Of a DNA stretch of 64,000 nucleotides, positions 3,766 to 39,914 are shown piece by piece. Positions within the stretch are counted from its first letter, which is position 1. Each line of letters begins with the position of its first letter. The DNA is taken from assembly GCA_041497895.1 (NCBI GenBank), contig JBGQHJ010000004.1:298-64297 (forward strand). Direction: 5' to 3'. Origin of the DNA: Candidatus Methylomirabilia bacterium (GTDB taxonomy: Bacteria > Methylomirabilota > Methylomirabilia > Rokubacteriales > CSP1-6). The notes below the pieces were generated by a model. It was not told the DNA's origin. It did not search any database and worked only from the letters and a program-made list of their open reading frames with translations. Both the position numbers and the translations under genes were made by a program.

Positions 3766-3795
3766 TTGACTTGACCGGCGCCCGCCGGATATAAC
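3766..3795 (+). promoter_or_regulatory. Candidate sigma-70-type promoter for the liv-like ABC operon
   Basis: TTGACT (3766-3771), 18-nt spacer, TATAAC (3790-3795), about 55 nt upstream of the permease start at 3850. Confidence 0.4.
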
Positions 3796-3849
3796 CGCCC
3801 CCATTACCGTCACGCTGCGACAGGGTCGCCGCGGCGGACGGAGCGGCCG

Positions 3850-4746
3850 GTGGAGCCCGGCGGGGGGTCTGCGCTGGACACGATCCTGCAGCTTGCCCTG
3901 AATGGCCTCGCCGTGGGCTGCATCTACGGCCTGGTCGCCCTCGGCTTCGTCCTCATCTACAAGGCCACCGAGCTGGTCAACTTCGCCCAGGGCGACCTGC
4001 TCATGCTGGGCGCGTTCGTCTGCTACATGTTCGTGGTCTGGTACGGCGTCGGCTACTGGACCGCGTTCGCGCTCGCGGTCGGCATCGTCGGCGCGTTCGG
4101 AGCGGTGCTCGACGCCACCCTGCTCCGGCGCGTCATCGGGCAGCCCCAGTTCGCGGTGGTCATGCTCACCATCGGGCTCGGCGCGATGTTGCGGTCCTTC
4201 GCGTCGGCGACCTGGGGCTCCGAGATCTACACGCTGCCGACCCCGTTCAGCGCCAAGACCACCCGGCTCGGCGGGGTGACCGTGAGCCACGAGTACGTGG
4301 CGATCATCGTGGGCACCGTGGCGCTCTGCGCGCTGCTCTACGCGTTCTTCACCTACTCGCGGGTGGGCGTGGCCATGCAGGCCGCGTCGCAGAACCAGCT
4401 CGCCGCCTACTACATGGGCATCCCGGTGAAGCGGATGTTCTCGCTGATCTGGGCCATCTCGTCCGGCGTGGCCGCCATCGCGGGTGTCCTGCTGGCTCCG
4501 GTCTCGCTGATCGACATCAACCTGGGCTTCATCGGGCTCAAGGCGTTCGCGGCCGCGGTGCTGGGCGGCTTCGGGTCCATCCCGGGCGCGCTGGTGGGCG
4601 GCGTGACCATCGGGCTCATCGAGCTGTTCTCCGGCGCCTACCTGCCGCTCGGGGTGAAGGACGTGGCCGCCTACGTGGTGCTGCTGCTGGTGCTGGCCAT
4701 CCGCCCCCAGGGCATGTTCGGCACCGTGCGCCGGAAGAAGGTCTGA
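3850..4746 (+). CDS. Branched-chain amino acid (HAAT family) ABC transporter permease, LivH-like
   Basis: 298 aa polytopic membrane protein. LNGLAVGCIYGLVALGFVLIY is a typical LivH N-terminus. GTG start. Confidence 0.9.
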   Translation: MEPGGGSALDTILQLALNGLAVGCIYGLVALGFVLIYKATELVNFAQGDLLMLGAFVCYMFVVWYGVGYWTAFALAVGIVGAFGAVLDATLLRRVIGQPQFAVVMLTIGLGAMLRSFASATWGSEIYTLPTPFSAKTTRLGGVTVSHEYVAIIVGTVALCALLYAFFTYSRVGVAMQAASQNQLAAYYMGIPVKRMFSLIWAISSGVAAIAGVLLAPVSLIDINLGFIGLKAFAAAVLGGFGSIPGALVGGVTIGLIELFSGAYLPLGVKDVAAYVVLLLVLAIRPQGMFGTVRRKKV

Positions 4747-4758
4747 GCCCCCGCGGCC

Positions 4759-5901
4759 ATGCGCTTCGCCTTCAAGACCACCTACGATCACGACCTGGGG
4801 CTCTTCCGCGACCCGGTCCAGCGGCGCTGGTACGCGGGCCTGCTCGCCGCGGTGCTGCTGCTGCCGCTCGCGGTGCCCGACTACGTGAGCGACGTCAGCA
4901 TGGTCTTCATCTACGGGCTCTGCGGGCTCTCCCTGATGGTGCTGGCCGGCTACACCGGCCTGGTGAGCCTGGGGCACGCCGCGTTCCTCGGCATCGGGGC
5001 CTACGCCCACGTGTACTTCCTGCAGGATCTCGGGCTGCCGTGGGTGGTCTCGGTCGCCCTCGCCGGGGTCCTCTCGGCGGCGGCCGGGGTGCTGGTGGGC
5101 CTGCCCGCGCTGCGCATGACCGGCGTGTACCTGACGATCGCCACCCTGGCCTTCGCGCTGATCATCCAGGAGGTGTTCACCCGCTGGGAGCACGTGACCC
5201 ACGGTCTGAAGGGCCGGCCGGTGGACAAGCCGATGATCTTCGGCGTCTCCTTCGCCTCCGACGCGGCCTTCTACTTCCTCTGCCTGGCGGTGCTGATATG
5301 CGGCCTCTGGCTCACCGCCAACGTCCTGCGCGCGCCGACCGGCCGCGCGTGGGTGGCCATCCGGGACAGCGAGATCGCGGCGCAGTCGATGGGCGTGCAC
5401 CTGGCCCGCTACAAGACCCTGGCCTTCGCCTACTCGGCGGGCCTCATGGGCGCGGCGGGCGCCCTCTTCGCCCACAAGATCGGCTTCCTCGCCCCCGACA
5501 TCTTCAGCGTCCTGCTCTCGATCCAGTTCCTGTTGATGGTCGTGGTGGGCGGCCTCGGCAGCCTGCACGGCGCGCTCTACGGGGCGGTATTCGTGGCGAT
5601 GCTGCCGGTGCTCATCTCGCAGATGCGCGACACCACGCCCCAGTGGGTCGGCCACCTGGTGGGGGTGCTCGGCAAGGACGCGGGCGCCGCCGCCTACCTG
5701 GCGGTGGACCGCTTCGTCAAGCAGCCCGGGCTCGAGCCCGGGATCTTCGGCCTGATCCTGGTGCTCTTCATCCTGTTCGAGCCGCTCGGCATCTACGGCC
5801 GATGGCGCAAGATCCAGCTCCTCTTCTCCACGTTCCCGCTCTACAAGCGCGCCACCTTCCGGCGCCAGAAGACCTACATGCGCTCGGAGCGCCTTCGGTG
5901 A
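4759..5901 (+). CDS. Branched-chain amino acid ABC transporter permease, LivM-like
   Basis: 380 aa membrane protein containing GYTGLVSLGHAAFLGIGAY. Follows the LivH-like gene. Confidence 0.9.
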   Translation: MRFAFKTTYDHDLGLFRDPVQRRWYAGLLAAVLLLPLAVPDYVSDVSMVFIYGLCGLSLMVLAGYTGLVSLGHAAFLGIGAYAHVYFLQDLGLPWVVSVALAGVLSAAAGVLVGLPALRMTGVYLTIATLAFALIIQEVFTRWEHVTHGLKGRPVDKPMIFGVSFASDAAFYFLCLAVLICGLWLTANVLRAPTGRAWVAIRDSEIAAQSMGVHLARYKTLAFAYSAGLMGAAGALFAHKIGFLAPDIFSVLLSIQFLLMVVVGGLGSLHGALYGAVFVAMLPVLISQMRDTTPQWVGHLVGVLGKDAGAAAYLAVDRFVKQPGLEPGIFGLILVLFILFEPLGIYGRWRKIQLLFSTFPLYKRATFRRQKTYMRSERLR

Positions 5902-15491: not shown

Positions 15492-15959
15492 TCACTTGAC
15501 CACCAGCACCTCGACGGGCGAGCGCTTGAGCGCGGCCTCGGCGACGCTCCCCAGCAGGAAGTGGGTCACCGCGCCCGCCCCCCTCGCCCCCACCACCAGC
15601 ACGTCCGCCCGCTCCGCGCGGAGCGCGGCCAGCAACTCCGGCAGCGGGAGCCCGGTCCGCACGACGCCGCGGGCGCGCCAGCCGGCCTTCGCCAGCAGGG
15701 CGGCGGCGCCGTCGACCTGGCGCTGGGCCACCGACCGGCGGATCCGCTCCATGGAGGCCGCCTGCGCCGCGATCTGCGCGCGCATCGGAGCGGGCACGAG
15801 CGGCATCGCCGGCAGCCGCACCGGCTCGACCACGCGCACGCACGTCACCCGGCCGCCCCGCGGGGGACGGAGCCGCGCCACGAAGGCGGCGGCCCGGCGC
15901 GAGTGCGCCGACCCGTCCAGCCCGACCACGATACGGCGGTACCTCCGCGGAGCGGCCAT
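15492..15959 (-). CDS. Universal stress protein
   Basis: 155 aa. RIVVGLDGS..., VVGARGAGAVTHFLLGSVAE. Confidence 0.85.
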   Translation of the reverse strand: MAAPRRYRRIVVGLDGSAHSRRAAAFVARLRPPRGGRVTCVRVVEPVRLPAMPLVPAPMRAQIAAQAASMERIRRSVAQRQVDGAAALLAKAGWRARGVVRTGLPLPELLAALRAERADVLVVGARGAGAVTHFLLGSVAEAALKRSPVEVLVVK

Positions 15960-15968
15960 CGAGCTCTC

Positions 15969-18059
15969 CTAGGCGCCGAGGCTGGCCCGCGCGTCGACCA
16001 CGATCGCGCCGTCCGGGCTCGCCAGCAGAGGGTTGATCTCGATCTCTCGCAGCTCGGGGAGATCCACCATCAGCTGCGAGAACCGGCTGATGATGCCGGC
16101 GAGCGCGAGGCGATCCACCGGCCGCTCGCCGCGGATGCCGCGGAGCAGCGGCGCGATACGGAGCTCGTCGAGGAGCGTCGCCGCCTCGTCGGGAGAGACC
16201 GGGGCCAGGCACACCGCGGTGTCGCCCATGACCTCGACGTAGATGCCGCCGAGCCCGACCATCAGGACCGGGCCCCACTGCGGATCGCGCACGCCGCCCA
16301 GCAACAGCTCCTTGCCGGTCGGGGCCATCGCCTCGACGAGCAGCCCGCGGATCGTCGCCTGCGGCCGCTCCACCGCGACCCGCGCCAGCATGGCCGCCGC
16401 CGCCTCGCGCACCGCGCGCGCGTCGCGCAGGCCGAGGGCCACGCCGCCCACCTCGGTCTTGTGGGTGATGTCGGGCGAGACGATCTTCAGGGCCACCGGG
16501 AAGCCGAGACGCTCCGCGGCGGCCGCCGCGTCGTCCGCACTCTTGACCACGCGGCCCTCGACGCCGGGAATACCGTAGGCGGTGAGCAGCGGCTGCAGCT
16601 CGGGCGTGCCGAGCTGCCGCGCCCCCGGGCCGCCCTGCTCACCGAGCCAGGCGCGGGCCGCGGCCGGGTCGACCGACGGGACGAACGGGCTCGGGTCCCT
16701 GAGCCGGCGCTCGCTGAGCTTCGCCATGCCGGCCAGCGTCTTGACGGCCGGCTCGGGGAAGGCGTAGCACGGGATGCCGGCCTCCTCGAGGGTGCGGATC
16801 CCGGGGGCCACGCGCGCGCCTCCCACGAAGGCCGCGACCACCGGGATCGACCAGCCGAGCGTCGCGCCCGCGATGGTGCGCGCCACGCTGGCCGCGTCGG
16901 TCGCGGCCTGCGGCGTCAGGAGCACGAGCATCGCGTCGGCGCTCTCGCTGCCCAGGGTGTGCAGCGCGTGGCCGTACCGGCGCGCGTCGGCGTCGCCCAC
17001 CAGGTCCACCGGGTTGCCGAGCCCGGCCGTCGCGGGCAGCCCCTCGGCAAGTCGCCGGCGCAGCGGCTCGGCGGGCGGCTCCATGGTGAAGGCGGCGGCC
17101 CGCGCCGCGTCCGTGGCGACGATGCCGAGACCGCCCCCGTTGGTCACCACCACCAGACGGCGGCCGCGCGGCATCGGCTGGCTCGCGAGCCCGCGCGCGA
17201 CGTCGAACAGCTCCTCGACGGTGTCGACGCGCAGCGCGCCCGCCTGCCGGACCGCCGCGTCGAAGGCCCGGTCGGATCCGGCAAGCGCGCCGGTGTGCGA
17301 GGCGACCGCGCGCGCGCCCTCGGGGGAGCGCCCCGCCTTCAGCACCACCACCGGCTTGATGAGGGCGGCGCGCCGGAGCGCGTCGAGGAACCGGCGGCCG
17401 TCGGCCACGCCCTCGATGTAGCACGCCACCACGCGGGTCTCCGCGTCGGTGGCCACCGCATCGAGCAGGTCGCTCTCGTTGACGTCGGCCTGGTTGCCGA
17501 GCGAGGCGAAGAGGGAGAAGCCGACCCGGCGGTCGCGCGCCCAGTCGAGGATCGCCACCGCGAGCGCGCCGGAATGGGAGAGGAAGGCGATGCCGCCGGG
17601 CTCGGGCATGCCGGGGGCGAACGTCACGTTGAGCCGCCTGGTCGGCCGGATCCAGCCGAGGCAGTTCGGTCCCAGCACGCGGATCGGCTGGTCCCGCAGC
17701 CACTCGCGCAGCTGGGCCTCCCGCCGCGCGCCCTCCCCGCCGATCTCCCGGAAGCCGGCCGAGATCACCACCGCGCCGCCCACTCCCTTGGCCACGCACT
17801 GCACGAGCGCGGGCAGCACGTCGACCGCGGGCAGCGCGATCACGGCCAGGTCCACCGGGCCCTCGGCGTCCTGGATCCGCGGCACCGCGGCCAGGCCCTG
17901 CACCGTGCTCGCGCGCGAGTTGACCGGGATGATGCGGCCGCGGAAGCCGGCCGAGCGCAGGTTGGCGACGACGCTGCCGCCGACCTTGAACGGATCGCGC
18001 GAGGCCCCGATCACCGCCACGCTGCCCGGGTCGAGGAACGGAACGAGCGAGCCGCTCAC
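15969..18059 (-). CDS. ADP-forming acetyl-CoA synthetase / acyl-CoA synthetase (NDP-forming), fused alpha-beta type
   Basis: 696 aa. N-terminal CoA-binding and succinyl-CoA-synthetase-like domains (VAVIGASRDPFKVGG, SHSGAL), with a C-terminal ATP-grasp domain. Confidence 0.9.
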   Translation of the reverse strand: MSGSLVPFLDPGSVAVIGASRDPFKVGGSVVANLRSAGFRGRIIPVNSRASTVQGLAAVPRIQDAEGPVDLAVIALPAVDVLPALVQCVAKGVGGAVVISAGFREIGGEGARREAQLREWLRDQPIRVLGPNCLGWIRPTRRLNVTFAPGMPEPGGIAFLSHSGALAVAILDWARDRRVGFSLFASLGNQADVNESDLLDAVATDAETRVVACYIEGVADGRRFLDALRRAALIKPVVVLKAGRSPEGARAVASHTGALAGSDRAFDAAVRQAGALRVDTVEELFDVARGLASQPMPRGRRLVVVTNGGGLGIVATDAARAAAFTMEPPAEPLRRRLAEGLPATAGLGNPVDLVGDADARRYGHALHTLGSESADAMLVLLTPQAATDAASVARTIAGATLGWSIPVVAAFVGGARVAPGIRTLEEAGIPCYAFPEPAVKTLAGMAKLSERRLRDPSPFVPSVDPAAARAWLGEQGGPGARQLGTPELQPLLTAYGIPGVEGRVVKSADDAAAAAERLGFPVALKIVSPDITHKTEVGGVALGLRDARAVREAAAAMLARVAVERPQATIRGLLVEAMAPTGKELLLGGVRDPQWGPVLMVGLGGIYVEVMGDTAVCLAPVSPDEAATLLDELRIAPLLRGIRGERPVDRLALAGIISRFSQLMVDLPELREIEINPLLASPDGAIVVDARASLGA

Positions 18060-26118: not shown

Positions 26119-26538
26119 TCACGCCGATGCCGGCGCGATGGCGTCCATCAGATCGTTGCGGGAGACCATGCCGACGACCCGCTGTTCGTCGTCGATGACG
26201 GGCAGGCTCCGGAGCTTCGACTCGGTGAGGTACTCGACCGCGGAAGCCAGCGACTCCGTCGGGCGCAGGGCCAGGACCCCGTGAGCCATGAACCGGGACA
26301 CCGGCTGCTGCCAGACCTCGGGGGTTTCGATGGCCAGGCACGCGACGCGCAGGAGGTCGCCCTTGGTGACCATGCCGACCAGACGTCCTTCGCGCGTGAC
26401 GACCGGAAACGCATTGTAGTCGTACTTGGCCGCGACGTTGCGGACCTCGAGCATCGGGATCGCCTCGATGATCTGCACGATCTTCCGCGTCATCACGGTC
26501 TCCACCGGAGCGGCCAGCGCGCTCGGCGCGGAGCCCAT
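26119..26538 (-). CDS. CBS-pair domain protein
   Basis: 139 aa with two CBS repeats. ATG 26538 overlaps the stop of the upstream DUF2267 gene. Confidence 0.85.
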   Translation of the reverse strand: MGSAPSALAAPVETVMTRKIVQIIEAIPMLEVRNVAAKYDYNAFPVVTREGRLVGMVTKGDLLRVACLAIETPEVWQQPVSRFMAHGVLALRPTESLASAVEYLTESKLRSLPVIDDEQRVVGMVSRNDLMDAIAPASA

Positions 26539-26927
26539 CACGCGTCCTCCCAGACGTCCTTGAGATCGCGGGGCAGCTGCGCACACACGTCGTCGGCCTC
26601 GCCGGGCGAGAGCTGCTCCTTGAGCGCGGCGAAGACGCCGATGGTGAGGAAGCGGGCCTCGCGAATGGTCTTGAGGCCCGCCTCCCGCCTGACCCGCTCG
26701 TAGAACTCCGGGCGATTCATCTTGATCGGCTTGCGCCCCGGCACGTCGCCGGCTTTCCACACCTCCTTGAGCGCGCGCGGCAGCTGCGCGACCGCCTGCG
26801 CCGCCTCCGTCGGCAGCAGGCGGTCCCGCAGGGCGTGGAGGACGGCCGCGGATCCGACCTTGGCCACCCCCCGATCCGTCTGCCCGGTCTCGTCGATCAC
26901 CCGGCGGTAGAAGCTGAGCGTGGTCAT
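26538..26927 (-). CDS. DUF2267 domain protein
   Basis: 129 aa with two tandem DUF2267-like halves (...AVLHALRDRLLPTEAAQAVAQLP...; ...GVFAALKEQLSPGEADDVCAQLP...). Confidence 0.8.
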   Translation of the reverse strand: MTTLSFYRRVIDETGQTDRGVAKVGSAAVLHALRDRLLPTEAAQAVAQLPRALKEVWKAGDVPGRKPIKMNRPEFYERVRREAGLKTIREARFLTIGVFAALKEQLSPGEADDVCAQLPRDLKDVWEDA

Positions 26928-26941
26928 TGGGATCCCTCCGG

Positions 26942-27424
26942 CTACTTCTTCAACAGACCGAGTGCCTCGCGGGCCTTGCGGGCCGAGAGGGTCATGTCAC
27001 CCTTCTTGCAGGCGGCATCCGCCTGCTGGACGAGCGCGCCGGCCTGCTTCACCCGCGGCGCCTGGATGTCCTGCCCGCGCGGCACCGGAGGCTCCTGCTG
27101 GCTGCGGGGCGCCTGAATGTCCTGCTGGCGCGGTGCCTGAATGTCCTGCTGCCGCGGTGCCTGAATGTCCTGCTGCCGCGGTGCCTGGATGTCCTGCTGG
27201 CGCGGTGCCTGAATGTCCTGCTGCCGCGGTGCCTGAATGTCCTGCGACCGGGCGCCCGCCTGACTGCGAGGAGACTGGATGTCCTGGCTCTTGGCCTGGG
27301 CGCTCTTGAGCGCGGCCTTGGCCTGGGCCAGCTCCGCCGGACATGGATCGGCAGCTCGGGCCACTCCGGGCGTCGTGAGCGCGATGATCCCGAGACCGAG
27401 CACGACAGCGACGACTTGCCTCAT
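26942..27424 (-). CDS. Secreted tandem-repeat protein with eight QDIQ(A/S)PR repeats; unknown function
   Basis: ATG 27424 is preceded by AAGGAGA. Signal peptide MRQVVAVVLGLGIIALTTPGVARA. Repeats are flanked by short helical regions each containing Cys. GC3 is high in this frame. Confidence 0.7.
   Translation of the reverse strand: MRQVVAVVLGLGIIALTTPGVARAADPCPAELAQAKAALKSAQAKSQDIQSPRSQAGARSQDIQAPRQQDIQAPRQQDIQAPRQQDIQAPRQQDIQAPRQQDIQAPRSQQEPPVPRGQDIQAPRVKQAGALVQQADAACKKGDMTLSARKAREALGLLKK
27111..27254 (-). repeat. Tandem 24-bp repeat x6 (plus-strand unit gcctgaatgtcctgctgccgcggt) inside the repeat-protein CDS
   Basis: Copies start at 27111, 27135, 27159, 27183, 27207 and 27231. Degenerate copies are at ~27060 and ~27273. 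In frame, 8 aa per unit (QQDIQAPR). Confidence 0.9.
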
Positions 27425-27459
27425 GGCATTCTCCTTTTGATGGACCCTTACACGGTGGG

Positions 27460-27475
27460 TGCATTCCGAGTGCCA
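27460..27475 (-). promoter_or_regulatory. Sigma-54 promoter upstream of the repeat-protein / DUF2267 / CBS operon
   Basis: The minus strand reads TGGCAC-tcgga-ATGCA. Predicted +1 is ~27449, 25 nt before ATG 27424. Confidence 0.65.
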
Positions 27476-27556
27476 CGCCACTCGGGTCGGCGGGTGCGAG
27501 AAAACGGGACGTTGGGCGGAGCCCGCGCGGCTCGGCTGGGGCGGCCCGCTCCGGAG

Positions 27557-27587
27557 TGAGGCGGCGATGCCCCGCCGCCCCGCCTCA
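27557..27587. promoter_or_regulatory. Inverted repeat TGAGGCGG-N15-CCGCCTCA; either the rtcB terminator hairpin or a UAS for the 27460 sigma-54 promoter
   Basis: 8-bp arms. The right arm overlaps the rtcB stop (27585-27587). It lies 82-112 nt upstream of the -24 element. The same 8-mers form the palindrome at 61149-61166. Confidence 0.35.
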
Positions 27588-29054
27588 GCCCTTGATGTTG
27601 CCGATCGGCGTGAGTGAAACCACGCGGCGGGAGATGTCGAGGCGGTGCAGGGTGTCGACCACCGCGGTCAGGTCCTTGTAGGCGAACCCGGCTTCCTCGG
27701 CCACTCCGGACTTGGACGCCGCGCGCACGACGATCCCGCGCTCCGCCATGCTCTTGATCAGGGTCTCCCCCCCCACTCGGCGCTTGGCCTGCGCGCGCGA
27801 CATGGTGCGGCCCGCGCCGTGGGCCGTCGAGCCCCAGGTCTCGGCCATGGCCCGTGCGGTCCCGACCAGGAGCGCGGAGCCGGTCTCCATGGAGCCGCCG
27901 ATGATCACCGGCTGGCCGATCTCCCGGTAGTCGGCGGGCACGTCGGGCTCGCCCGGCCCGAAGGAGCGCGTGGCGCCCTTGCGGTGCACGACCAGCTCCA
28001 GCGCCCGGCCGTCCACGACGTGGCGCTCGAGCTTGGCCGTGTTGTGGCAGACGTCGTAGACCACGGAGAGGCCGAGGGCATGCGCGTCGCGCCCGAACAC
28101 CTTGGAAAACACTTCCCGGATCCGGTGGGTGATCACTTGCCGGTTGGCGAACGCGGTGTTCGCCGCGGCCGTCATGGCCCCGAAGTAGGCCTGCCCTTCC
28201 TTCGACCGAAACGGCGCGCACGCGAGCTCGCGGTCCCGCACGCTGATGCCGTACTGCGGCATCACCCGGTCGAACATCTTGAGGTAGTCGGTGCCGACCT
28301 GATGACCGAAGCCGCGCGAGCCGCAGTGGAGCATGACGAAGATCTGACCGGGGCCGTCCACGCCGAGGACGCGCGCCACGCGCTCGTCGTGGATGGCGCC
28401 GGGCCGCACCACCTGGATCTCCAGGTAGTGGTTGCCGGAGCCCAGCGTCCCGAGCTGCTCCATCCCCCGCTCGAGCGCCCGCGCGCTGACCTGCTCGGGA
28501 TCGGCCCCGGGCAGGCAGCCGCCACTCTCGATGTGCGCGAGATCCTCGGGCCACGCGTAGCCGCGCGCCACGCACCAGCCGGCGCCCTCCACCATCACCT
28601 TGCGGAACTCCGACCCGGAGAGGCGCACGAAGCCCTTCGCGCCGACCCCGGCCGGCACCGAGCGGAACAGGGCATCGATCAGCTGGGGCAAGCGCGGCCG
28701 CACCTCGGCCTCGGTGAGGCCGGTCCGCACGAGCCGCATCCCGCAGTTGATGTCGAACCCGATGCCGCCCGGCGAGATCACCCCCGAGTCGGCGCGGAAC
28801 GCGGCGACCCCGCCGATCGGGAAGCCGTACCCCCAGTGGCCGTCGGGCATGCAGAGCGACGCGCGCACGATGCCGGGCAGGCAGGCCACGTTGGTGACCT
28901 GCTCGAACACGCCGTCGTCCATCTGCTCGAGCAACGGGCCCGAGGCGTAGAGACGCGCCGGCACCAGCATGCCGGGCTTCGCCTGCGCCGGGATCTCCCA
29001 GACGCACTCCTCGACCCGCCGGGCCGCGCCGCGCAGCGATTCGGTGATCTTCAT
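27585..29054 (-). CDS. rtcB: RNA-splicing ligase RtcB (3'-phosphate/5'-hydroxyl RNA ligase)
   Basis: 489 aa. GFDINCGMRL, GSGNHYLEIQ, HCGSRGFGHQ, HRKGATR and STAHGAGR motifs. Confidence 0.95.
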   Translation of the reverse strand: MKITESLRGAARRVEECVWEIPAQAKPGMLVPARLYASGPLLEQMDDGVFEQVTNVACLPGIVRASLCMPDGHWGYGFPIGGVAAFRADSGVISPGGIGFDINCGMRLVRTGLTEAEVRPRLPQLIDALFRSVPAGVGAKGFVRLSGSEFRKVMVEGAGWCVARGYAWPEDLAHIESGGCLPGADPEQVSARALERGMEQLGTLGSGNHYLEIQVVRPGAIHDERVARVLGVDGPGQIFVMLHCGSRGFGHQVGTDYLKMFDRVMPQYGISVRDRELACAPFRSKEGQAYFGAMTAAANTAFANRQVITHRIREVFSKVFGRDAHALGLSVVYDVCHNTAKLERHVVDGRALELVVHRKGATRSFGPGEPDVPADYREIGQPVIIGGSMETGSALLVGTARAMAETWGSTAHGAGRTMSRAQAKRRVGGETLIKSMAERGIVVRAASKSGVAEEAGFAYKDLTAVVDTLHRLDISRRVVSLTPIGNIKG

Positions 29055-29061
29055 GCGTCTC

Positions 29062-29490
29062 CTAGATGTCGATGACCACTCGCGCGCGCCAGCCTCCCTC
29101 GACGGGCGCGAGCGCGAACTGGTGGAAGGTGACCGCCTTGGGGTCGGCCCCCAGCGCGGTACGCGGGGGATCGATGATACCGCCCTGGACGTCGGCGGTC
29201 AGCCGGTACGGCCCCTCCCCCGTCACGCGCACCACCGCGTGGGGAAAGACCTGGGCGTCCCGGTCCTTGAGAAAGATCATCTCGGACAGCCAGTCGTACA
29301 GCAGCAGGTCGCGCTCCGCGGCCTCGAGCTCGATCCGCCGCTCGACCGTGATCGCCAGCGTGCCCGGATCCACCATGAGGCGGGCGATGGCCGCCGCCGC
29401 GGTCTCGAAGAGATCGTCGAGGGACTTCCCCTCGATCTCGACCGCGCAGTCGGCCAGCGCCACGTCCTCCAGGAACGTGTAGCGCCCCAT
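29062..29490 (-). CDS. Archease (RtcB cofactor)
   Basis: 142 aa. Starts MGRYTFLEDVALADCAVEIEG (archease N-terminal D...ADxA motif), with KAVTFH near the C-terminus. Located immediately upstream of rtcB. Confidence 0.85.
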   Translation of the reverse strand: MGRYTFLEDVALADCAVEIEGKSLDDLFETAAAAIARLMVDPGTLAITVERRIELEAAERDLLLYDWLSEMIFLKDRDAQVFPHAVVRVTGEGPYRLTADVQGGIIDPPRTALGADPKAVTFHQFALAPVEGGWRARVVIDI

Positions 29491-29495
29491 CCGGG

Positions 29496-29702
29496 CTAGC
29501 GGCCGCCGGGGATCACGGTCTCCTTCCGCGTCGAGATGCCGAGCGCCGACCAGATCGGGCACCATCCCGCGAGCGCGGTGGCGATCGGGACCACCCCGAT
29601 CAGGCCCCACCACGTCTGCGGTCCCACCACGACCAGGGCCAGCAACACCACGCCGACCAGGACCCGGATCACTCGTTCCGCACTCCCCACGTTGAGCGTC
29701 AT
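29496..29702 (-). CDS. DUF2892 (YgaP-like) small membrane protein
   Basis: 68 aa with two TM helices and the GWCP motif. Confidence 0.7.
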   Translation of the reverse strand: MTLNVGSAERVIRVLVGVVLLALVVVGPQTWWGLIGVVPIATALAGWCPIWSALGISTRKETVIPGGR

Positions 29703-29726
29703 CTCGCCTCCTCCTCTCGGGTCAGG

Positions 29727-30119
29727 TCAGCTCTCCGCCGCCTCCGCCATGATCGCCTCGAGCGTGGCCTCCACCTCGCGGGCGACCTCCTTGAGACCCG
29801 GGGTCCCGTAGAGGTCGATCAGCGCGCTCGGCTTGATGGTGGCCAGCTTGGTGACGCCGCCCTCCTCGTAGAGCGAGATCCGGCACGGCAGCGCGGTGGA
29901 GATCTCGAGGTTGGTGTCGAGCACCTTCTTCGCCTGGATCGGGTTGCACACCTCGAAGATCCGGCACTCGTGGTCGAAGGACACGCCCTTCTCGGCCATC
30001 TTGGCCCGGAGGTCGTGCGTCCCCAGCACCCCGAACTTGTGGCGGGCCACCGCGGCCTCGAGATCCTTGGCGACCCGATCCAGCGGCTTGCGGGATTGAA
30101 CGACGTGCAGCATCGGCAT
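29727..30119 (-). CDS. DUF302 domain protein
   Basis: 130 aa. FGVLGTHDL...FEVCNP...LPCRISLYE is typical of DUF302. Confidence 0.85.
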   Translation of the reverse strand: MPMLHVVQSRKPLDRVAKDLEAAVARHKFGVLGTHDLRAKMAEKGVSFDHECRIFEVCNPIQAKKVLDTNLEISTALPCRISLYEEGGVTKLATIKPSALIDLYGTPGLKEVAREVEATLEAIMAEAAES

Positions 30120-30132
30120 GATTGTCCTCCTC

Positions 30133-33100
30133 TCAGCGCTCGGCCATGTAGTAGAGGACCGGCACCGCCATGCGGGACAGCAGGGTGGACGCGACCTCGC
30201 CGGCCATGAGCGACACCGCGAGGCCCTGGAAGATCGGATCGAACAGGATCACCGAGGCGCCCACCACCACCGCGGCCGCGGTGAGCAGCATGGGACGGAA
30301 GCGCACCGCGCCCGCGTCGATCACCGCCTCGGCCAGCGGCATGCCCTGGGCCCGGCGCAGCTCGATGAAGTCCACCAGGATGATCGAGTTGCGCACGATG
30401 ATGCCGGCGCCCGCGATGAAGCCGATCATCGAGGTGGCGGTGAAGAAGGCGCCGAGCAGGCCGTGGGCGGGCAGGATCCCGACCAGGGTGAGCGGGATCG
30501 GCGCCATGATCACGAGCGGCGTGCGGAACGACCGGAACCAGCCCACCACCAGCACGTAGATCAGCACCATCACCGCGCCGAAGGCCAGGCCCAGATCGCG
30601 GAACACCTCGTAGGTCACCTGCCACTCCCCGTCCCACTTCATGGCCACGTGCTCGGTGAGGAACGGCTGGCTGGCCACGTGACGAGGGATGGCGCGCCCG
30701 TCGGGCAAGCGCACCGTGTCCAGCTCCCGGTTCATGCGGAGGATCGCATAGACCGGGCTCTCCTCCTGGCCGGCCACGTCGCCGGTGACGTAGACCACCC
30801 GCTGGAGGTTCTTCCGGTACACGAACGGGGGCTCGGTGGTGGCCTCCACCCGGACGAGCTCGGCCAGCGGCACCAGCGCGCCACTGCCGCTCCGGAGCTT
30901 GAGCCCGGCCAGGGCATCCACCCCGCTTCGCTGGTCGCGGGGCAGCCTCACGAAGATCGGCACGTCCTCCTTCTCGGCCGGCAGGTGGGCGAGGCCCGGG
31001 CTCGCCCCGCCGAGGACCACCCGCAGTGCGTCCACCACGCGCTCCGTCGAGACGCCGAGCAGCGCCGCCTTCTCCTTGTCGAGGACGAAGCGGTAGCCGG
31101 GCTGCGGATCCTCCACGTACCAGTCCACGTCCACCACGCCCGGCGTGCGCTCGAAGACGCCGAGCACCCGCCGCGCGGCGTCGAGCTGGGCGGTCCGATC
31201 GTCGCCGTACACCTCGGCGACGAGGGTTTGCAAGACCGGCGGGCCCGGCGGGACCTCGGCGACCTTGATGCGAGCGCCCGCGGGCCCCGCGATCCGCGCC
31301 AGCACCGGGCGCAGCCGCCCGGCGATCTCGTGGCTCTGGACGCTCCGCTCGCCCTTGGGCCGGAGGTTCACCTGGATGTCGGCCACGTTCGATCCCTGCC
31401 GCACCGGCGGGAAGTAGTGGCGGATCAGCCCGTTGAAATTGTACGGCGCCGCGGTCCCCACGTAGAGCTGCAGGTCGGTCACGTCGCGATCGGCGGCCAG
31501 GGCCCGGCCGAGCTCGCGGCCCACCCGCGCCGTCTCCTCGAGCGTGGTGCCCTCCGGCATGTCCACGATCACCTGCAGCTCGCTCTTGTTGTCGAAGGGC
31601 AGCATCTTCACCCGCACCAGCCGGAAGTACACGAGCGAGCCCGATCCCAGCAGGAGCAGGCCGACCACGCCCAGGAAGAGCCAGCGGCGCTTCCAGTCGG
31701 TGAGCAGCGGCGTCATGATCCGGCGGTAGAGGCGCGTGGTCCAGTCCTCCGCGCCCTCCTCGTGGCCGGGCCCGCCGCCGGTGGGCGCGCGCAGCAGTCG
31801 GGTGGCGGCCCACGGGGAGACCATGAACGCGATGAAGAGCGAGAAGAGCATGGCCACCGAGGCGCCCACCGGGATCGGCCGCATGTACGGACCCATGAGC
31901 CCGCCCACGAAGGCCATGGGCAGGATCGCGGCGATCACCGCGAACGTGGCGAGGATGGTGGGGTTGCCGACCTCGTCCACCGCCTCGACCGCCACCGCGG
32001 CCCGGGAGCGGCCGCGGTTGGCGGGCAGGTGGACGTGACGCGCGATGTTCTCGACCACCACGATCGCGTCGTCCACCAGGATGCCGATGGAGAAGATCAG
32101 GGCGAAGAGGGTGACCCGGTTCAGCGTGTAGCCGTAGAGATAGTAGAGGAAGAGGGTGAGCGCCAGCGTGACCGGGATCGCCACCAGCACCACCAGGGAC
32201 GCGCGCAGGCCCAGGAACAGCGCGATCAGCCCGGTCACCGACACCGTGGCGAGCAGCAGGTGCCGGAGGAGCTCGTTGGACTTCTCGCTGGCCGTCTCCC
32301 CGTAGTTGCGGGTCACGGCCAGGTGCACGTCGGCGGGGATCAGGCCGCCGCGGACCGCCTGCACCTTGGCCAGCACGCGGTCGGCGATCACCACCGCGTT
32401 GGTGCCCTTGCGCTTGGCCACCGACAGCGTCACCGCGGAGGCGACGTGTCCCGGAGCGGGGCCGTGGCCCGAGGCGCCCGCCCCCCCGCTCATCAGCACG
32501 TACTCCCGCGGCTCCTCGGGCCCGTCGTCCACGGAGGCCACGTCCCGCAGGTGGACGGGCCGGCCACGCGTCACCCCCACCACCACCTGCCCCAGCGCGG
32601 CGGGCTCGGCCAGGAAGACGCCGGCGTCGACCAGGTACTCGCGGTTGCCCCGGGAGAAGCGCCCGACCCGGAGCTCGCGGTTCGCCTCGCCGAGCGCCGC
32701 CACCACCGCGTCCGGCGTCACCCCGAAGCCGGCGAGGCGCTCGCGGTCGAGCGTCACCCGGAGCTGCCGGCGCAGCCCGCCGATGAGGCGCGTCTCGGCC
32801 ACGTCGGAGACGGCCTTGACCTGGTCGTCGAGCTGCGCGGCGATGCGGCGCAGGGTGAACGGATCGGCGTGCTCGCTCCAGAGGGTGAGCGCCAGGATCG
32901 GCACGTCGTCGATGGAGCGGGGCTTGACGAGGGGCTGGGAGGCCCCGGGTGGGATCAGGTCGAAGTTGGCCCGCAGCTTGTCGTGGAGCTTGACCATGCT
33001 GCGCTCCTCGTCCTCGCCCACGTAAAAGCGCACGATGGCCAGGGCGGCCCCGGGCTGGCTGGTCGAGTAGACATACTCGACGCCGGGGATCTCCCGCAGC

Positions 33101-33330
33101 TTCTTCTCCAGCGGAATGCTGATGCGCTCCTCGATCTCCTTGATCCCGGCCCCGGGCATCTCCACGAAGACGTCCGCGAAGGGCACCACGATCTGCGGCT
33201 CCTCCTCCCGCGGGGTGGCGAGGACCGCGAAGAGACCCAGCAGGAGCGAGCCCAGCACCACGAGCTGGGTCAGCTTGGAATCGATGAAGGCCTGCGCCAG
33301 CCGGCCCGCCACGCCGATCGGGCGGCTCAC
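30133..33330 (-). CDS. Efflux RND transporter permease (AcrB/CzcA superfamily)
   Basis: 1065 aa with 12-TM architecture and two large periplasmic loops. Typical [10 protein letters not shown]-terminus. Confidence 0.95.
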
Positions 33331-34523
33331 GACCCGGTCGCGACGCTCGCGCCGTCACTCAGGCGGGGCGCGCCCTCCACCACGAGGCGCTCCCCCGCGT
33401 CCAGGCCCGAGAGGATCTCGACGCGGTCTCCGTACCGCGCGCCCGCGGTGACCAGGCGGAGCCGGGCGATCCCCCGGGCGTCCACGACGTACGCGCTGGT
33501 GAGCTGGCCGCGCTCGACCAGGGCGGCGAGCGGGACCAGCAGGGCCTGGCGCTCCGCGGCGGGAAAGCGGGCGCGCCCGAACAGGCCGGTGCGCAGCCCG
33601 GGGTCGGCCGGCAGGTCGAGCTTGACCGTCACCGTGCGGCTGGTCGGATCGGCGGCGGGGATGATCTCGGCCACGCGGCCGAGCAGCGTGCGCGCGAGCG
33701 AGTCGACCACGACCGGGACGCTCTGGCCGATCTGCACGCGGCCGACCGCGGACTCCCCGACCACGGCCTCGAGGCGGTACGCACGCGGGTCGTCGAGCAC
33801 GAGCAGGGGCTGGCCGGGGACCGCCAGGTCTCCCGGCTCCGCGCGGCGATCCACCACCACCCCGGTGGCCGGCGCGGTGATGCGCGTCTCGCCCAGCGCG
33901 ATCTCGCTCGCCTGCAGCTCCGCGCTCGCTCCGTCGATGCGATAGCGCATCTGCTTCTCGCGGGCGTGCAGCGAGGCGATGCGCGCCTGGGCCTGCTCGA
34001 CCGCGGCTGCGGTGCTCTTCCGCTTCATCTCCACCGCCTCGTAGTCCTGCGCGCTGACCAGCTCGCGCTGCCAGAGCTGGCGATAGCGTCCCGCGGTGGC
34101 CGCCGCATAGACGTGATCGGCGTCGGCCGATCGAAGGGCGGCCTCCCCCTCCTCGAGCGTCCGCCGCGCCTCGTCGAGCGCCATCTCGGCCTCCGCGAGC
34201 GCGGCCCGGGCCCGCTCCGCGCGCGCCGCGAGCTCACGCTCGTCGACGGTCACCAGCACCCGGCCCTGCTCGACGTGGTCGCCCTGGCGCACCCGGATCT
34301 CGCGGACGTAGCCTTGCACCTTGCTCGAGACCAGCATCTGGGTCTTGGTCCGCACGGTCCCGACGACCTCCTCGGCGTCCCGCAGCGCCGAGAGGGCCAG
34401 CGTCTCCACCCGCACGCCGGTCACCGGCACGGCCCGATCCGCGGGGGCCTCGGCGGCGCGCTCGCCGCGGCAGGCCGCGAGCGCCGCGAGCGCCACGACC
34501 GCGACGAGGCACCGCGAGGTCAC
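33327..34523 (-). CDS. Efflux RND transporter periplasmic adaptor subunit (MFP/HlyD family), lipoprotein
   Basis: GTG 34523 overlaps the upstream stop (GTGA). Lipobox ALAAC. Contains a coiled-coil hairpin and beta-barrel domains. Confidence 0.85.
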
Positions 34524-34729
34524 GCGCGCACGCCCGCCGCGCCGCGCTCGACGCCGAGCTTCCGGAGGAACGTCTCCATCAGGCACCAGCCGGTGAGCGC
34601 AGACTGGAAGAGGTTGAGGCCCACGAACAGCGTGAAGAGCAGCCAGTACGGGCTGTGCACGTAGCTCAGCACGACGCTCACGGTGACGAAGGTCCCGGCG
34701 ATGAGGCGGATCCAGCGTTCGAGCGACAT
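34520..34729 (-). CDS. DUF2892 small membrane protein
   Basis: 69 aa starting at ATG 34729, which is preceded by GGAGG. Contains the TGWC motif. Paralog of 29496..29702. Confidence 0.7.
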   Translation of the reverse strand: MSLERWIRLIAGTFVTVSVVLSYVHSPYWLLFTLFVGLNLFQSALTGWCLMETFLRKLGVERGAAGVRA

Positions 34730-34787
34730 GGCTTCCTCCCGCGTTGCGCCCGTCACGGGCTAGGAGTGATGTACCCGCTCATGACGG

Positions 34788-34803
34788 TGCAACCGGGGTG
34801 CCA
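34788..34803 (-). promoter_or_regulatory. Sigma-54 promoter, perfect consensus, upstream of the DUF2892 / RND efflux / DUF302 / archease / rtcB operon
   Basis: The minus strand reads TGGCAC-cccgg-TTGCA. Predicted +1 is ~34777, 48 nt before ATG 34729. Confidence 0.75.
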
Positions 34804-34914
34804 CTGCTCTTCTGCCGTGGAATCCGAGACTTGCGGCGGCGAGCGGCGGCCCGGGCTGGGGAGCGCGCGCCTCAGCCGGGACCGCGGCGCCCCGGGCGCA
34901 CGCAGGCTACCGGC

Positions 34915-37440
<2,526 letters not shown>

Positions 37441-39177
37441 CTAGTCGTCGCCCCCGTAGCGCACCGTGATCAGCGCGTCGATCGCCTCGCGCAGATCCGG
37501 CAGCTCGCCGCGCCGCCAGCGCGTCTCGGCCTTGCCGAGCTGTCGCGCCAGCTCGCTGTCGGCGAATACGTCGCGCACCCAGCGCGAGAAGTCGCCGCGC
37601 TCGGCGTGGTACGCGAGCAGCTCTTCCGGCGTGATGGCCACCACGCGGCGAAAGGCCTGCAGGCTGTTGGCCGAACCGAGCACCCGGCCGCCGGCCCCCC
37701 GGAACAGGAACTCGCGGCCCGGGGGCACGTGCGAATCCACGTACTTGGTCAGGTGGCGCACGTGGACCGTCTGGCGCGGCGCGGCCACGAAGGTCACCGC
37801 GGTCGCCCGGCCGCCGGGGTCGCGCTGGACGATGAGGAACTGCCCGCGTGGCAGCCGCGAGAGCGCGGCCGACACCGCCTCGCTCCCGTCGATGGCGGGT
37901 AGGGTGGAATGGAGAAAGGCGAGCTCCTCGGGCACCGTGGTCCGCGCGAGGACGAATACGTCCACCGCCCGGATGACGGCCGCGCGCACCCACCGCGGCC
38001 GGTAGGTCACGAAGCAGAAGCCGCGGTCCTCGAGACCGAGCGCGTCGCTCGCGATGCCGCCGTCGTGCACCAGGTAGTGAGCCTCGTCGACCAGCACCCA
38101 GTGCGGACGCCCGACGCGCCGCCGGATCTCGCGGATGCGCCGCAGGGCCCGTTCGATCAGGAGGACCTTCTCGGCGTGGGACAGCGTGGAGAGGTCGAGG
38201 ACCGCCGAGGCCGTGGGGACGTGCTGGAGATGATCCAGCACCCGATCCACGTCCGCCGCCTCGGACACTTCGGCCCACGCGACGCCCGGCAGGCGCGAGA
38301 GCACACGGTAGTCCCCCTCCGGATCGATCACGCAGACCGCGTAGCGCGCAGCGACCAGCCGCTCGACGAGGGCGCCGGCGAGCCAGGACTTGCCGGAGTG
38401 CGGATCGCCGTGGATCAGCACGTTGATCCGGCGGGCCGGGATGGTGATCGGCTCGCTGGTGGTCGCGCCCCAGCCGAGCGAGATCCGGTGGCGTGGTGAC
38501 TGCTGCACCGCGAGCTGGTCCTCGAGCACCGGCCCGGCGATGGCGGCCCCGACGTCGGCGCCCGCGCCGCCCGGCAAGACCCAGTCCACGCGGTCGCGGA
38601 CGACCGCGATGCTGTTGCCCGGGCAGGCGCTGAAGCCGCACGCGTCGAAGAGGGCGAGGTCGTTCTCGGCGTCGCCCAGGGCCAGCACGTCGTGCGGCGA
38701 GAGCTCGAGAAATCGCAGCACCTGCTGGACCCCGGAGCCCTTGGACACGCCGGAGGGCAGCAGCATGAGGGCGGCGCGGTTCGGGATCAGGTCCCGGGTC
38801 ACGTCGGCCGCGCGCAGCGCCTCGCGCACCCCCGCCTCGTCGCCACGGCCGGTGCCGACGATGACCCGGCCCACCTGGTAGTAGATGCCCCGCCGCTCGA
38901 GCTCTCCGAGCAGCCGGCCGGGCACCGGGGGTCCCTGGTCGCGGATCATCGCCGAGCCGGGATAGTAGATCACCGCGCCGTTCTCGGCCACCACGCCGTC
39001 GAAGAGCTCCAGGCAGTCGCACACGCGCGTGAGCTCGAAGAAGGTGCGCCCGGTCACGAGCATCAGCCGGAGGCCCGCCTTCTTCGCCTGCTCGAGCGCG
39101 GCGCGCACCGACGGACCGATCCGGTCATCGACTGCGAGCGTGCCGTCGAAATCGCAAGCGAGCGCCTTGAAGAACAC
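37441..39177 (-). CDS. Fusion protein: N-terminal HAD-IIB (Cof-like) phosphatase plus C-terminal HerA/FtsK-like P-loop ATPase domain
   Basis: 578 aa. HAD motif I ACDFDGTLA and motif IV GDAENDL. Then Walker A GDPHSGKSW and Walker B VLVDEAHYL. GTG start. The stop abuts the mgtA start. Confidence 0.8.
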   Translation of the reverse strand: MFFKALACDFDGTLAVDDRIGPSVRAALEQAKKAGLRLMLVTGRTFFELTRVCDCLELFDGVVAENGAVIYYPGSAMIRDQGPPVPGRLLGELERRGIYYQVGRVIVGTGRGDEAGVREALRAADVTRDLIPNRAALMLLPSGVSKGSGVQQVLRFLELSPHDVLALGDAENDLALFDACGFSACPGNSIAVVRDRVDWVLPGGAGADVGAAIAGPVLEDQLAVQQSPRHRISLGWGATTSEPITIPARRINVLIHGDPHSGKSWLAGALVERLVAARYAVCVIDPEGDYRVLSRLPGVAWAEVSEAADVDRVLDHLQHVPTASAVLDLSTLSHAEKVLLIERALRRIREIRRRVGRPHWVLVDEAHYLVHDGGIASDALGLEDRGFCFVTYRPRWVRAAVIRAVDVFVLARTTVPEELAFLHSTLPAIDGSEAVSAALSRLPRGQFLIVQRDPGGRATAVTFVAAPRQTVHVRHLTKYVDSHVPPGREFLFRGAGGRVLGSANSLQAFRRVVAITPEELLAYHAERGDFSRWVRDVFADSELARQLGKAETRWRRGELPDLREAIDALITVRYGGDD

Positions 39178-39191
39178 GTGAGCGGTACCGG

Positions 39192-39207
39192 AGCAATCCT
39201 AGTGCCA
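39192..39207 (-). promoter_or_regulatory. Sigma-54 promoter upstream of the HAD-ATPase / mgtA operon
   Basis: The minus strand reads TGGCAC-tagga-TTGCT. Predicted +1 is ~39181, only ~4 nt before GTG 39177, so the transcript is near-leaderless. Confidence 0.7.
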
Positions 39208-39351
39208 CGCCGGCCGGTTCGGAAGACCCCGTTGGATGGCGATCATGGCCCGACCGGAGCGGGACACCCCTGCCCCACTGTCGTGGGAATTCCGTGCGGG
39301 CGGACCGGCTGGGCGAGGAGCGGATCGTCGATTCGGCGCGCGCTTGGGGCC

Positions 39352-39367
39352 GGGCACCACGCTTGCA
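39352..39367 (+). promoter_or_regulatory. Sigma-54 promoter upstream of the pal-like / gdh / DUF3300 / DUF2950 / OPT operon
   Basis: GGGCAC-cacgc-TTGCA. Predicted +1 is ~39378, 3 nt before ATG 39381. No Shine-Dalgarno is visible. Confidence 0.65.
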
Positions 39368-39380
39368 CCATGACAGGGGC

Positions 39381-39914
39381 ATGAGCACGATACCCGTCCT
39401 TGCGCTGCTGGTTCTCCTGGTCTCCGCCGCCGGCTGCGGGACGGCGAAGAGCAGTCAGCCGGACCTCGCGGCATCCCCGCGCGAGCCCTCGCCCGCGGTG
39501 GCCGCCACGGAGCCTCCAGATGAAGGCGCCCTGACCCCCACGGGCTCACCGCCGCCGCCCCAGGAGTTCATCCCGGCCGCCCGGCTGGCCGACATCTACT
39601 TCGCCTTCGACGCCCACGAGATCCGTGCCGAGGACACGCGCGTGCTCGACGAGAACGCGGCGTGGCTGCGGGCGACCCCGAACGCGCTCGTCCTGATCGA
39701 GGGGCACACCGACGAGCGCGGGACCAGCGAGTACAACCTGGGGCTCGGGGATCTGCGCGCCCGCGCCGCCATGACCTACCTGATGGCCCACGGCGTGCCG
39801 GCGGTCCGCATGGTCGCGATCTCCTACGGCAAGGAGCGGCCGATCTGCACCGAGCACGACGAGAGCTGCTGGGCGCGGAATCGCCGGGCCCACTTCCTGG
39901 TCAAGCTGCTCTGA
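39381..39914 (+). CDS. OmpA-family peptidoglycan-associated lipoprotein (Pal-like)
   Basis: Lipobox LVSAAGC. OmpA_C domain with GHTDERGTSEYNLGLGDLRA. Confidence 0.85.
   Translation: MSTIPVLALLVLLVSAAGCGTAKSSQPDLAASPREPSPAVAATEPPDEGALTPTGSPPPPQEFIPAARLADIYFAFDAHEIRAEDTRVLDENAAWLRATPNALVLIEGHTDERGTSEYNLGLGDLRARAAMTYLMAHGVPAVRMVAISYGKERPICTEHDESCWARNRRAHFLVKLL

Follow-up and report, generated by a model that had tools for sequence, protein, structure and literature searches.

We analyzed a window of 64,000 nucleotides (JBGQHJ010000004.1, positions 298 to 64,297), part of contig C4 in the metagenome-assembled genome (MAG) of an uncultured soil bacterium of the Rokubacteria (G000; 5.1 Mb, 87% complete, ~72% G+C). 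Downstream of a sigma-54 site lie seven co-directional genes on the minus strand, which encode a DUF2892 protein, a periplasmic adaptor (MFP), an RND permease, a DUF302 protein, a second DUF2892 protein, archease and the RNA ligase RtcB. The seven genes probably form a single sigma-54-dependent operon, composed of an old archease-rtcB core and recently acquired cargo and belonging to a general stress regulon. Genes were called from third-position G+C together with Pfam. The control region and the unit consist of the following features.

34856..34875, minus strand: enhancer-like dyad CTGAGGcgcgcgctCCCCAG (CTGAGG-N8-CCCCAG, 20 bp), 72 nt upstream of the T of TGGCAC; presumed site of a bacterial enhancer-binding protein (bEBP)
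34821..34833, minus strand: IHF-like element CAAGTCTCGGATT, 30 nt upstream of TGGCAC, with 2 mismatches to YAA-N4-TTGATW
34788..34803, minus strand: perfect sigma-54 promoter TGGCAC-cccgg-TTGCA; −24 GG at 34802-34801, −12 GC at 34790-34789, predicted start ~34777
34520..34729, minus strand: DUF2892/YgaP-like (YgaP_TM) protein of 69 aa with two transmembrane segments (TM); PF11127, 47 bits; Shine-Dalgarno (SD) sequence GGGAGGAAG
33327..34523, minus strand: RND periplasmic adaptor (MFP) lipoprotein, lipobox LAAC; PF16576/PF13437; TIGR01730, 183 bits, above cut-off
30133..33330, minus strand: RND permease of 1065 aa with an AcrB-like TM4 motif; PF00873, 515 bits
29727..30119, minus strand: DUF302 protein of 130 aa; PF03625, 62 bits
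29496..29702, minus strand: second DUF2892 protein, 68 aa; PF11127, 78 bits
29062..29490, minus strand: archease, 142 aa; PF01951, 106 bits over model positions 1-136; PDB 1jw3/4n2p
27585..29054, minus strand: RtcB 3'-phosphate/5'-OH RNA ligase of archaeal type, 489 aa; PF01139, 557 bits over model positions 1-426

The genes are closely packed, with successive junctions of −4, −4, 13, 24, 5 and 7 nt. Both negative junctions are GTGA overlaps, the first of which places the MFP start codon over the stop of the first DUF2892 gene. Archease has no SD sequence and starts 5 nt past the preceding stop, and the gap between archease and rtcB is 7 nt. The overlaps, together with an SD-less start so close behind a stop codon, imply translational coupling. 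Scanning identified no intrinsic terminators in the seven-gene unit and no Rfam families in 26500-39500. On the operon strand, the pattern TGGC-N8-TGC finds no further sites between 34803 and 27475, the latter being the promoter of the next unit. A single weak sigma-70-like match (9/12) occurs at 29202-29174, within archease and ~120 nt upstream of rtcB. The gene order and tight junctions reported in a preliminary description of this DNA are thus borne out by Pfam assignments and measured spacings, and its view of the perfect sigma-54 site as the only recognizable promoter stands.

RtcB and archease match their family models (PF01139 and PF01951) over the full length. RtcB, the sole RtcB of the host genome, aligns end to end with the Pyrococcus horikoshii enzyme (1uc2, E 6e-164) and keeps all of the motifs DINCG, GSGNH, HxGSRGxGHQ, DVxHN and STxHGAGR, which we take to supply the metal-binding Asp/Cys and three His residues and the guanylylated His. 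The RND permease and MFP adaptor are likewise both matched by family models. The pair resembles tripartite RND pumps of the AcrAB (HAE) and CusCBA (HME) types in the translational coupling of an MFP lipoprotein to a 12-TM permease, with a DD motif in TM4 as in AcrB. It differs in that the permease reaches no NCBIfam subfamily cut-off (best subfamily model 450 bits versus a cut-off of 1250), that DUF2892 and DUF302 genes flank the pair, and that no outer-membrane factor gene is found within the seven-gene unit, no genome-wide search for one having been made. A heavy-metal (CusA/CzcA) identity was rejected as unsupported, given the subfamily scores and the AcrB-like motif. The two DUF2892 proteins share a GWC motif and are distant paralogs; recent duplication was rejected as their origin, with only 7/21 residues identical in the sole aligned stretch. 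A literature search on DUF302 and DUF2892 yielded genome notes tying DUF302 to sulfur-oxidizer gene clusters and no functional study.

The control elements occupy a 185-nt spacer past mgtA, the last gene of the unit upstream, and a leader of ~48 nt precedes the first ATG, that of DUF2892. The dyad matches the consensus CTG[AG]GG-N8-CC[CT]CAG (CTGRGG-N8-CCYCAG) perfectly. Genome-wide, a dyad with at most 2 mismatches is present 67-113 nt upstream of 18 of 102 strict sigma-54 sites, versus 2 of 102 in a downstream control, and 10 of the 18 dyad-bearing promoters are on contig C4. At the same stringency, it is found at 12 of 21 orthologous archease-unit promoters of relatives (3.5% of random windows). 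The IHF-like element (≤2 mismatches, about −30) accompanies 7 of 21 regulon promoters and 0.8% of controls. First genes behind the dyad promoters encode CBS proteins, USP, Hsp20, the S30AE/HPF hibernation factor, HU/IHF-like, DksA-like and BON proteins, CcoNO cbb3 oxidase, malic enzyme, acetyl-CoA synthetase and a radical-SAM enzyme. The sharing of one dyad among these promoters suggests that RNA ligation belongs to a general program for stress, low energy or dormancy, with dormancy or low energy a more likely trigger than a specific toxin. What is observed directly is the gene content, the junctions, the motif statistics and the distribution among relatives.

The RtcR/CARF domain (PF06956) is absent from the whole host MAG, and all but one of 61 genomes of the order lack the RtcR domain. 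About 18 sigma-54 activators (bEBPs) are encoded in the host genome, nearly all with REC-AAA-HTH architecture, and none is on the contig of the window. The shared dyad and the lack of RtcR indicate that rtcB may be regulated by a global NtrC-type enhancer system rather than by a dedicated RtcR. The only activator gene that adjoins a regulon-type promoter is of NtrC type (C25:33915-35459); it is a candidate regulon activator, though a lead only. The one bEBP without a receiver domain (gene at C162:~3700-5050, +) has an NAD-binding Rossmann N-terminus (GFO_IDH_MocA/DapB_N) instead; it was rejected as an RtcR-like activator on account of this N-terminus and the missing RtcR domain. The exceptional genome, G021, has its RtcR domain next to a fragment of a different, divergent RtcB paralog of E. 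coli type (C45:14039-14575, −, and 15921-16190, +). A canonical Rtc module may thus have been acquired separately and now accompany the archaeal-type one.

The cyclase gene rtcA is present in the host genome outside the window and unlinked to rtcB (C25:19831-20865, +), with no sigma-54 site upstream. It lies ~37 nt from a divergent gene, and contig C25 carries many regulon-type promoters as well as many stress genes, which by eye look GroEL-like and Lon-like. The preliminary description had noted that rtcR, CARF and rtcA genes were missing nearby and had advised a search for RtcR-like bEBPs. Its statement on rtcR and CARF can be extended to the whole MAG, the bEBP search returned no RtcR-like protein and only unlinked activators, and its statement on rtcA is correct for the window and for linkage to rtcB but not for the genome.

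To place the operon among its relatives, RtcB orthologs (76-95% identity) from 60 related genomes and public contigs were compared together with upstream flanks of 10 kb or less, using the pattern TGGCA-N7-TGC for sigma-54 sites. The archease-rtcB pair is constant across these loci, and a sigma-54 site precedes the unit in most Methylomirabilota loci; homologous sigma-54 promoters sit before archease or before its partner genes. The combination of enhancer, IHF-like element and −24/−12 promoter is kept in G017, G013, G016, G019 and G020. In G019, G007, G052, G035, G021 and several public MAGs the promoter is followed directly by archease-rtcB. With archease in first position, only 29-41 nt separate TGGCA from the start codon, which predicts leaderless or near-leaderless mRNAs. 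The distance between the T of TGGCA and the ATG is 29-31 nt at L038 4903-4934, L041 4931-4961, L053 9462-9492, L060 9514-9543 and L066 9512-9541. Other loci have further genes at this position: hsp20 in four, USP or CBS genes in others, and DUF302 in G017 and in G036, which belongs to another genus. The second DUF2892 gene stands alone before archease in G020 and is absent from G017 and G016.

Linkage of rtcB to the full pump block is confined to G000, G001, G013, G016 and probably the fragmented G009 (4-5 species). In the RtcB tree, the pump-bearing genomes fall into one shallow, poorly resolved group of a single genus, and pump-less G017 is the sister of the window genome (100/99 support). 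Alignment of these two loci reveals one clean indel of 4.64 kb (34774-30135), which covers the leader, DUF2892, MFP and RND, and a second clean indel of 0.23 kb (29724-29495), which covers the second DUF2892 gene. The retained segments, namely the enhancer-promoter region (85%), DUF302 (95%) and archease-rtcB, are all 85-95% identical. The G013 ortholog of the RND gene (L033 5829-9092) contains 69 frameshifting indels and stops in all frames. The adjoining MFP and rtcB genes are free of such lesions, and the RND sequence represents either a pseudogene in decay or a fault of local assembly. G052 and G055 carry an RND of 88% identity together with DUF2892 and MFP, in neither case linked to rtcB. 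The G052 cassette stands alone in another family and has its own sigma-54 site and dyad. There, the first gene behind the promoter encodes a small secreted protein with Met/Gly/His-rich MGPGM/GHMGPG repeats (L133 2701-2919), presumably of a kind typical of metal handling, and is followed by a gene for a 140-aa protein without a Pfam match (L133 3002-3424) and then by DUF2892-MFP-RND. In G001 and G016 a MacB-like ABC exporter replaces mgtA upstream of the pump block. It consists of an FtsX permease and an ATPase, with a second MFP in G016 (L034 9495-11784, L035 10172-13159); G001 lacks the DUF2892 gene and the sigma-54 site, and its ATPase gene ends in an overlap with the start of the MFP gene. 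Judged from this distribution, the linkage of pump and rtcB is real but appears to be young, modular and repeatedly broken. A linkage both unique and incidental was an outcome that the preliminary description would have taken as refuting its reading. The comparison goes half of this way, since the linkage recurs in several species and is thus not unique, yet is labile in evolution.

The spacer separates the seven genes from a second sigma-54 unit on the same strand.

34915..39207, minus strand: upstream sigma-54 unit with a HAD-P-loop ATPase fusion (37441-39177) and an MgtA-type P-type ATPase (34915-37440); promoter at 39207

The fusion gene (37441-39177, −) joins a Cof-type HAD phosphatase to a HerA/DUF87-like P-loop ATPase and abuts mgtA. 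Its synteny with mgtA and rtcB is kept across the genus, and in G042 it is found just downstream of rtcB (L050). In G015, G018 and G024, archease-rtcB is fused to the mgtA unit: in the first two a gene for a His-rich secreted protein directly follows mgtA and precedes archease-rtcB, which lacks a sigma-54 site of its own, and in G024 archease follows mgtA after 20 nt. The secreted protein, conserved in three congeners, is ~210-220 aa long, carries His-rich stretches at both termini and matches no Pfam family; its gene lies between mgtA (or the HAD-ATPase) and archease (L036 6854-7513, L037 3507-4130, L051 6610-7278). G012, a congener without rtcB, presents the empty site, with mgtA followed directly by the next promoter.

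Neither scanning nor folding detects a terminator between mgtA and the promoter of the rtcB operon, so read-through from the mgtA unit is possible. Folding z-scores are +0.92 for this spacer and −0.63 for the rtcB 3' region, which also gives no terminator. The rtcB stop codon is embedded in dyad-like TGAGGCGG...CCGCCTCA (window 27475-27587), the presumed enhancer of the next sigma-54 promoter, which serves a repeat-protein gene; fold stability in this region is no greater than that of shuffled sequence.

It is unlikely, given these features, that the seven genes are the tail of a nine-gene transcript, initiated at the 39207 promoter and running through HAD-ATPase and MgtA, to which the 34803 site is additive or redundant. 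Such a transcript would fit the terminator-free spacer, the fused arrangements in G015, G018 and G024, and the widespread synteny of HAD-ATPase and mgtA with rtcB in the genus. The same spacer, however, holds a full set of enhancer, IHF-like element and perfect −24/−12 promoter that is kept in five other genomes. Read-through and an internal promoter are also mutually compatible, and mgtA read-through is plausible alongside a sigma-54 operon with its own promoter.

The preliminary description had proposed that linkage of pump and RNA ligase reflects a specific shared toxic-stress trigger. In this scenario RNA is damaged by a toxicant (for instance a ribotoxic xenobiotic, or a reactive species of sulfur or a metal); RND/MFP would export the toxicant, the DUF302 and DUF2892 proteins would serve as accessory handling proteins, and RtcB-archease would repair the RNA. 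Tight junctions with two GTGA overlaps, the occurrence in 4-5 species, the association of DUF302 alone with archease-rtcB in G017 and G036, the second exporter upstream in G001 and G016, and the Met/Gly/His-rich peptide ahead of the G052 cassette all speak for such a coupling. Nevertheless, we regard it as doubtful. The linkage is confined to a shallow clade and is absent from the sister species and most of the order, the pump is unlinked to rtcB in G052, G055 and G035, and G013 has a disrupted RND gene beside an intact rtcB. Partner genes in other lineages are hsp20, USP, CBS or mgtA, and the RND motif is an AcrB-like DD rather than of heavy-metal type. The shared control is real but general, as the promoter carries the enhancer common to a stress/dormancy-type regulon. 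A narrower version, in which pump block and RtcB-archease were co-selected within the clade against one membrane-permeant, RNA-damaging agent that is expelled by the DUF2892, MFP, RND and DUF302 proteins while cleaved tRNA and rRNA are resealed, has a slim chance of being correct; if true, this would be the first efflux-plus-RNA-repair detoxification operon.

That archease-rtcB is transcribed also or mainly from an internal housekeeping-type promoter, independently of sigma-54, is highly improbable: the lone sigma-70-like match inside archease that would favor it is weak, lies in DNA of 72% G+C and was scored against a consensus that may not hold in this phylum, its position would part rtcB from its cofactor gene, the adjacent junctions are only 5 and 7 nt, and relatives have the sigma-54 site immediately upstream of archease.

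Several points count against a single sigma-54 operon in which recent cargo was added to an old core. That the genes are co-transcribed, the promoter is used and the enhancer functions is deduced from sequence, and we likewise infer transcription, activator identity, signal and pump substrate. All genomes compared are MAGs, and errors of assembly could account for the frameshifts in G013. Whether the block was inserted or repeatedly lost is judged from an RtcB tree with poor resolution within the genus. Furthermore, the block is tightly packed in its clade, and two efflux systems (MacB-like and RND) precede rtcB in G001 and G016; some selective value of pump-ligase co-expression is therefore conceivable.

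We propose that the core of the operon, in which a 20-bp dyad, an IHF-like site and a sigma-54 promoter precede archease-rtcB, is ancestral in Rokubacteriales/Methylomirabilota. The cargo would comprise three modules that come and go independently (DUF2892-MFP-RND, DUF302 and the second DUF2892 gene), with the short stretch between promoter and archease as their slot. An unlinked, probably NtrC-type bEBP appears to recognize CTGRGG-N8-CCYCAG in place of a dedicated RtcR/CARF sensor. Bound to the dyad and aided by DNA bending, this activator would open the sigma-54 complex, and a single transcript would run from the promoter through the cargo genes to archease and rtcB. RtcB-archease would then reseal 2',3'-cyclic-phosphate/5'-OH breaks in tRNA and rRNA, with rtcB induced alongside hibernation, chaperone and low-oxygen functions. 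Repair of such breaks is the function of RtcB in the literature (PMC10630183), and archease converts the ligase into a multiple-turnover enzyme (Desai et al. 2014, as cited in PMC10630183). The pump would be a co-regulated passenger, joined by operon fusion within the regulon, because the pump and rtcB units already belonged to it before they were fused in this clade.

In E. coli and Salmonella, rtcBA is transcribed from a sigma-54 promoter under the divergently encoded activator RtcR (PMC4987338, PMC10630183, PMC4012209). The window operon would be similar in expressing RtcB from a sigma-54 promoter that needs an enhancer-binding ATPase, and in its probable tie to stress of the translation apparatus. 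In contrast, its genome has no RtcR and its enhancer is common to ~18 unrelated promoters; the partner gene is archease, with rtcA unlinked on C25; RtcB is of the archaeal, archease-dependent type and aligns over its full length with the Pyrococcus enzyme; and cargo genes intervene between promoter and ligase. Adjacent archease and RtcB genes of close sequence similarity are also found in the "tRNA splicing operon" of P. horikoshii (Desai et al. 2014, as cited in PMC10630183). In contrast, the host here is bacterial, control would be through sigma-54 and an enhancer, the setting is a stress regulon, and a role in intron splicing is not implied. An analogy for the regulon as a whole may be the DosR dormancy regulon of M. 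tuberculosis, in which one regulator motif precedes operons for alpha-crystallin/Hsp20, USP, CBS, nitroreductase-like, respiratory and central-carbon proteins. In both, one motif stands before many Hsp20, USP, CBS, respiratory and central-carbon operons. DosR, however, is a LuxR-type response regulator acting at sigma-70-type promoters, whereas sigma-54 and a bEBP would act here, and the regulon described here extends to RNA repair and a hibernation factor, with an efflux pump added in some species.

Relative to known sigma-54-controlled RNA repair, the proposed global enhancer control without RtcR and the capture of cargo would be novel. The pump linkage itself is less significant than at first sight, and serves as a warning for annotation that function should not be inferred from gene linkage that is tight but phylogenetically shallow. 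The locus also illustrates cleanly, in a natural setting, how an operon can grow when cargo is captured in the few bases that separate a near-leaderless promoter from its first gene. For this widespread, uncultured phylum of soil bacteria, the operon would represent a second bacterial way of wiring RtcB to sigma-54, as an output of a global, enhancer-driven stress or dormancy response with no private sensor of RNA ends. RNA repair would thereby be placed beside ribosome hibernation, small heat-shock proteins and Mg2+ uptake, among the functions that keep the translation apparatus alive.

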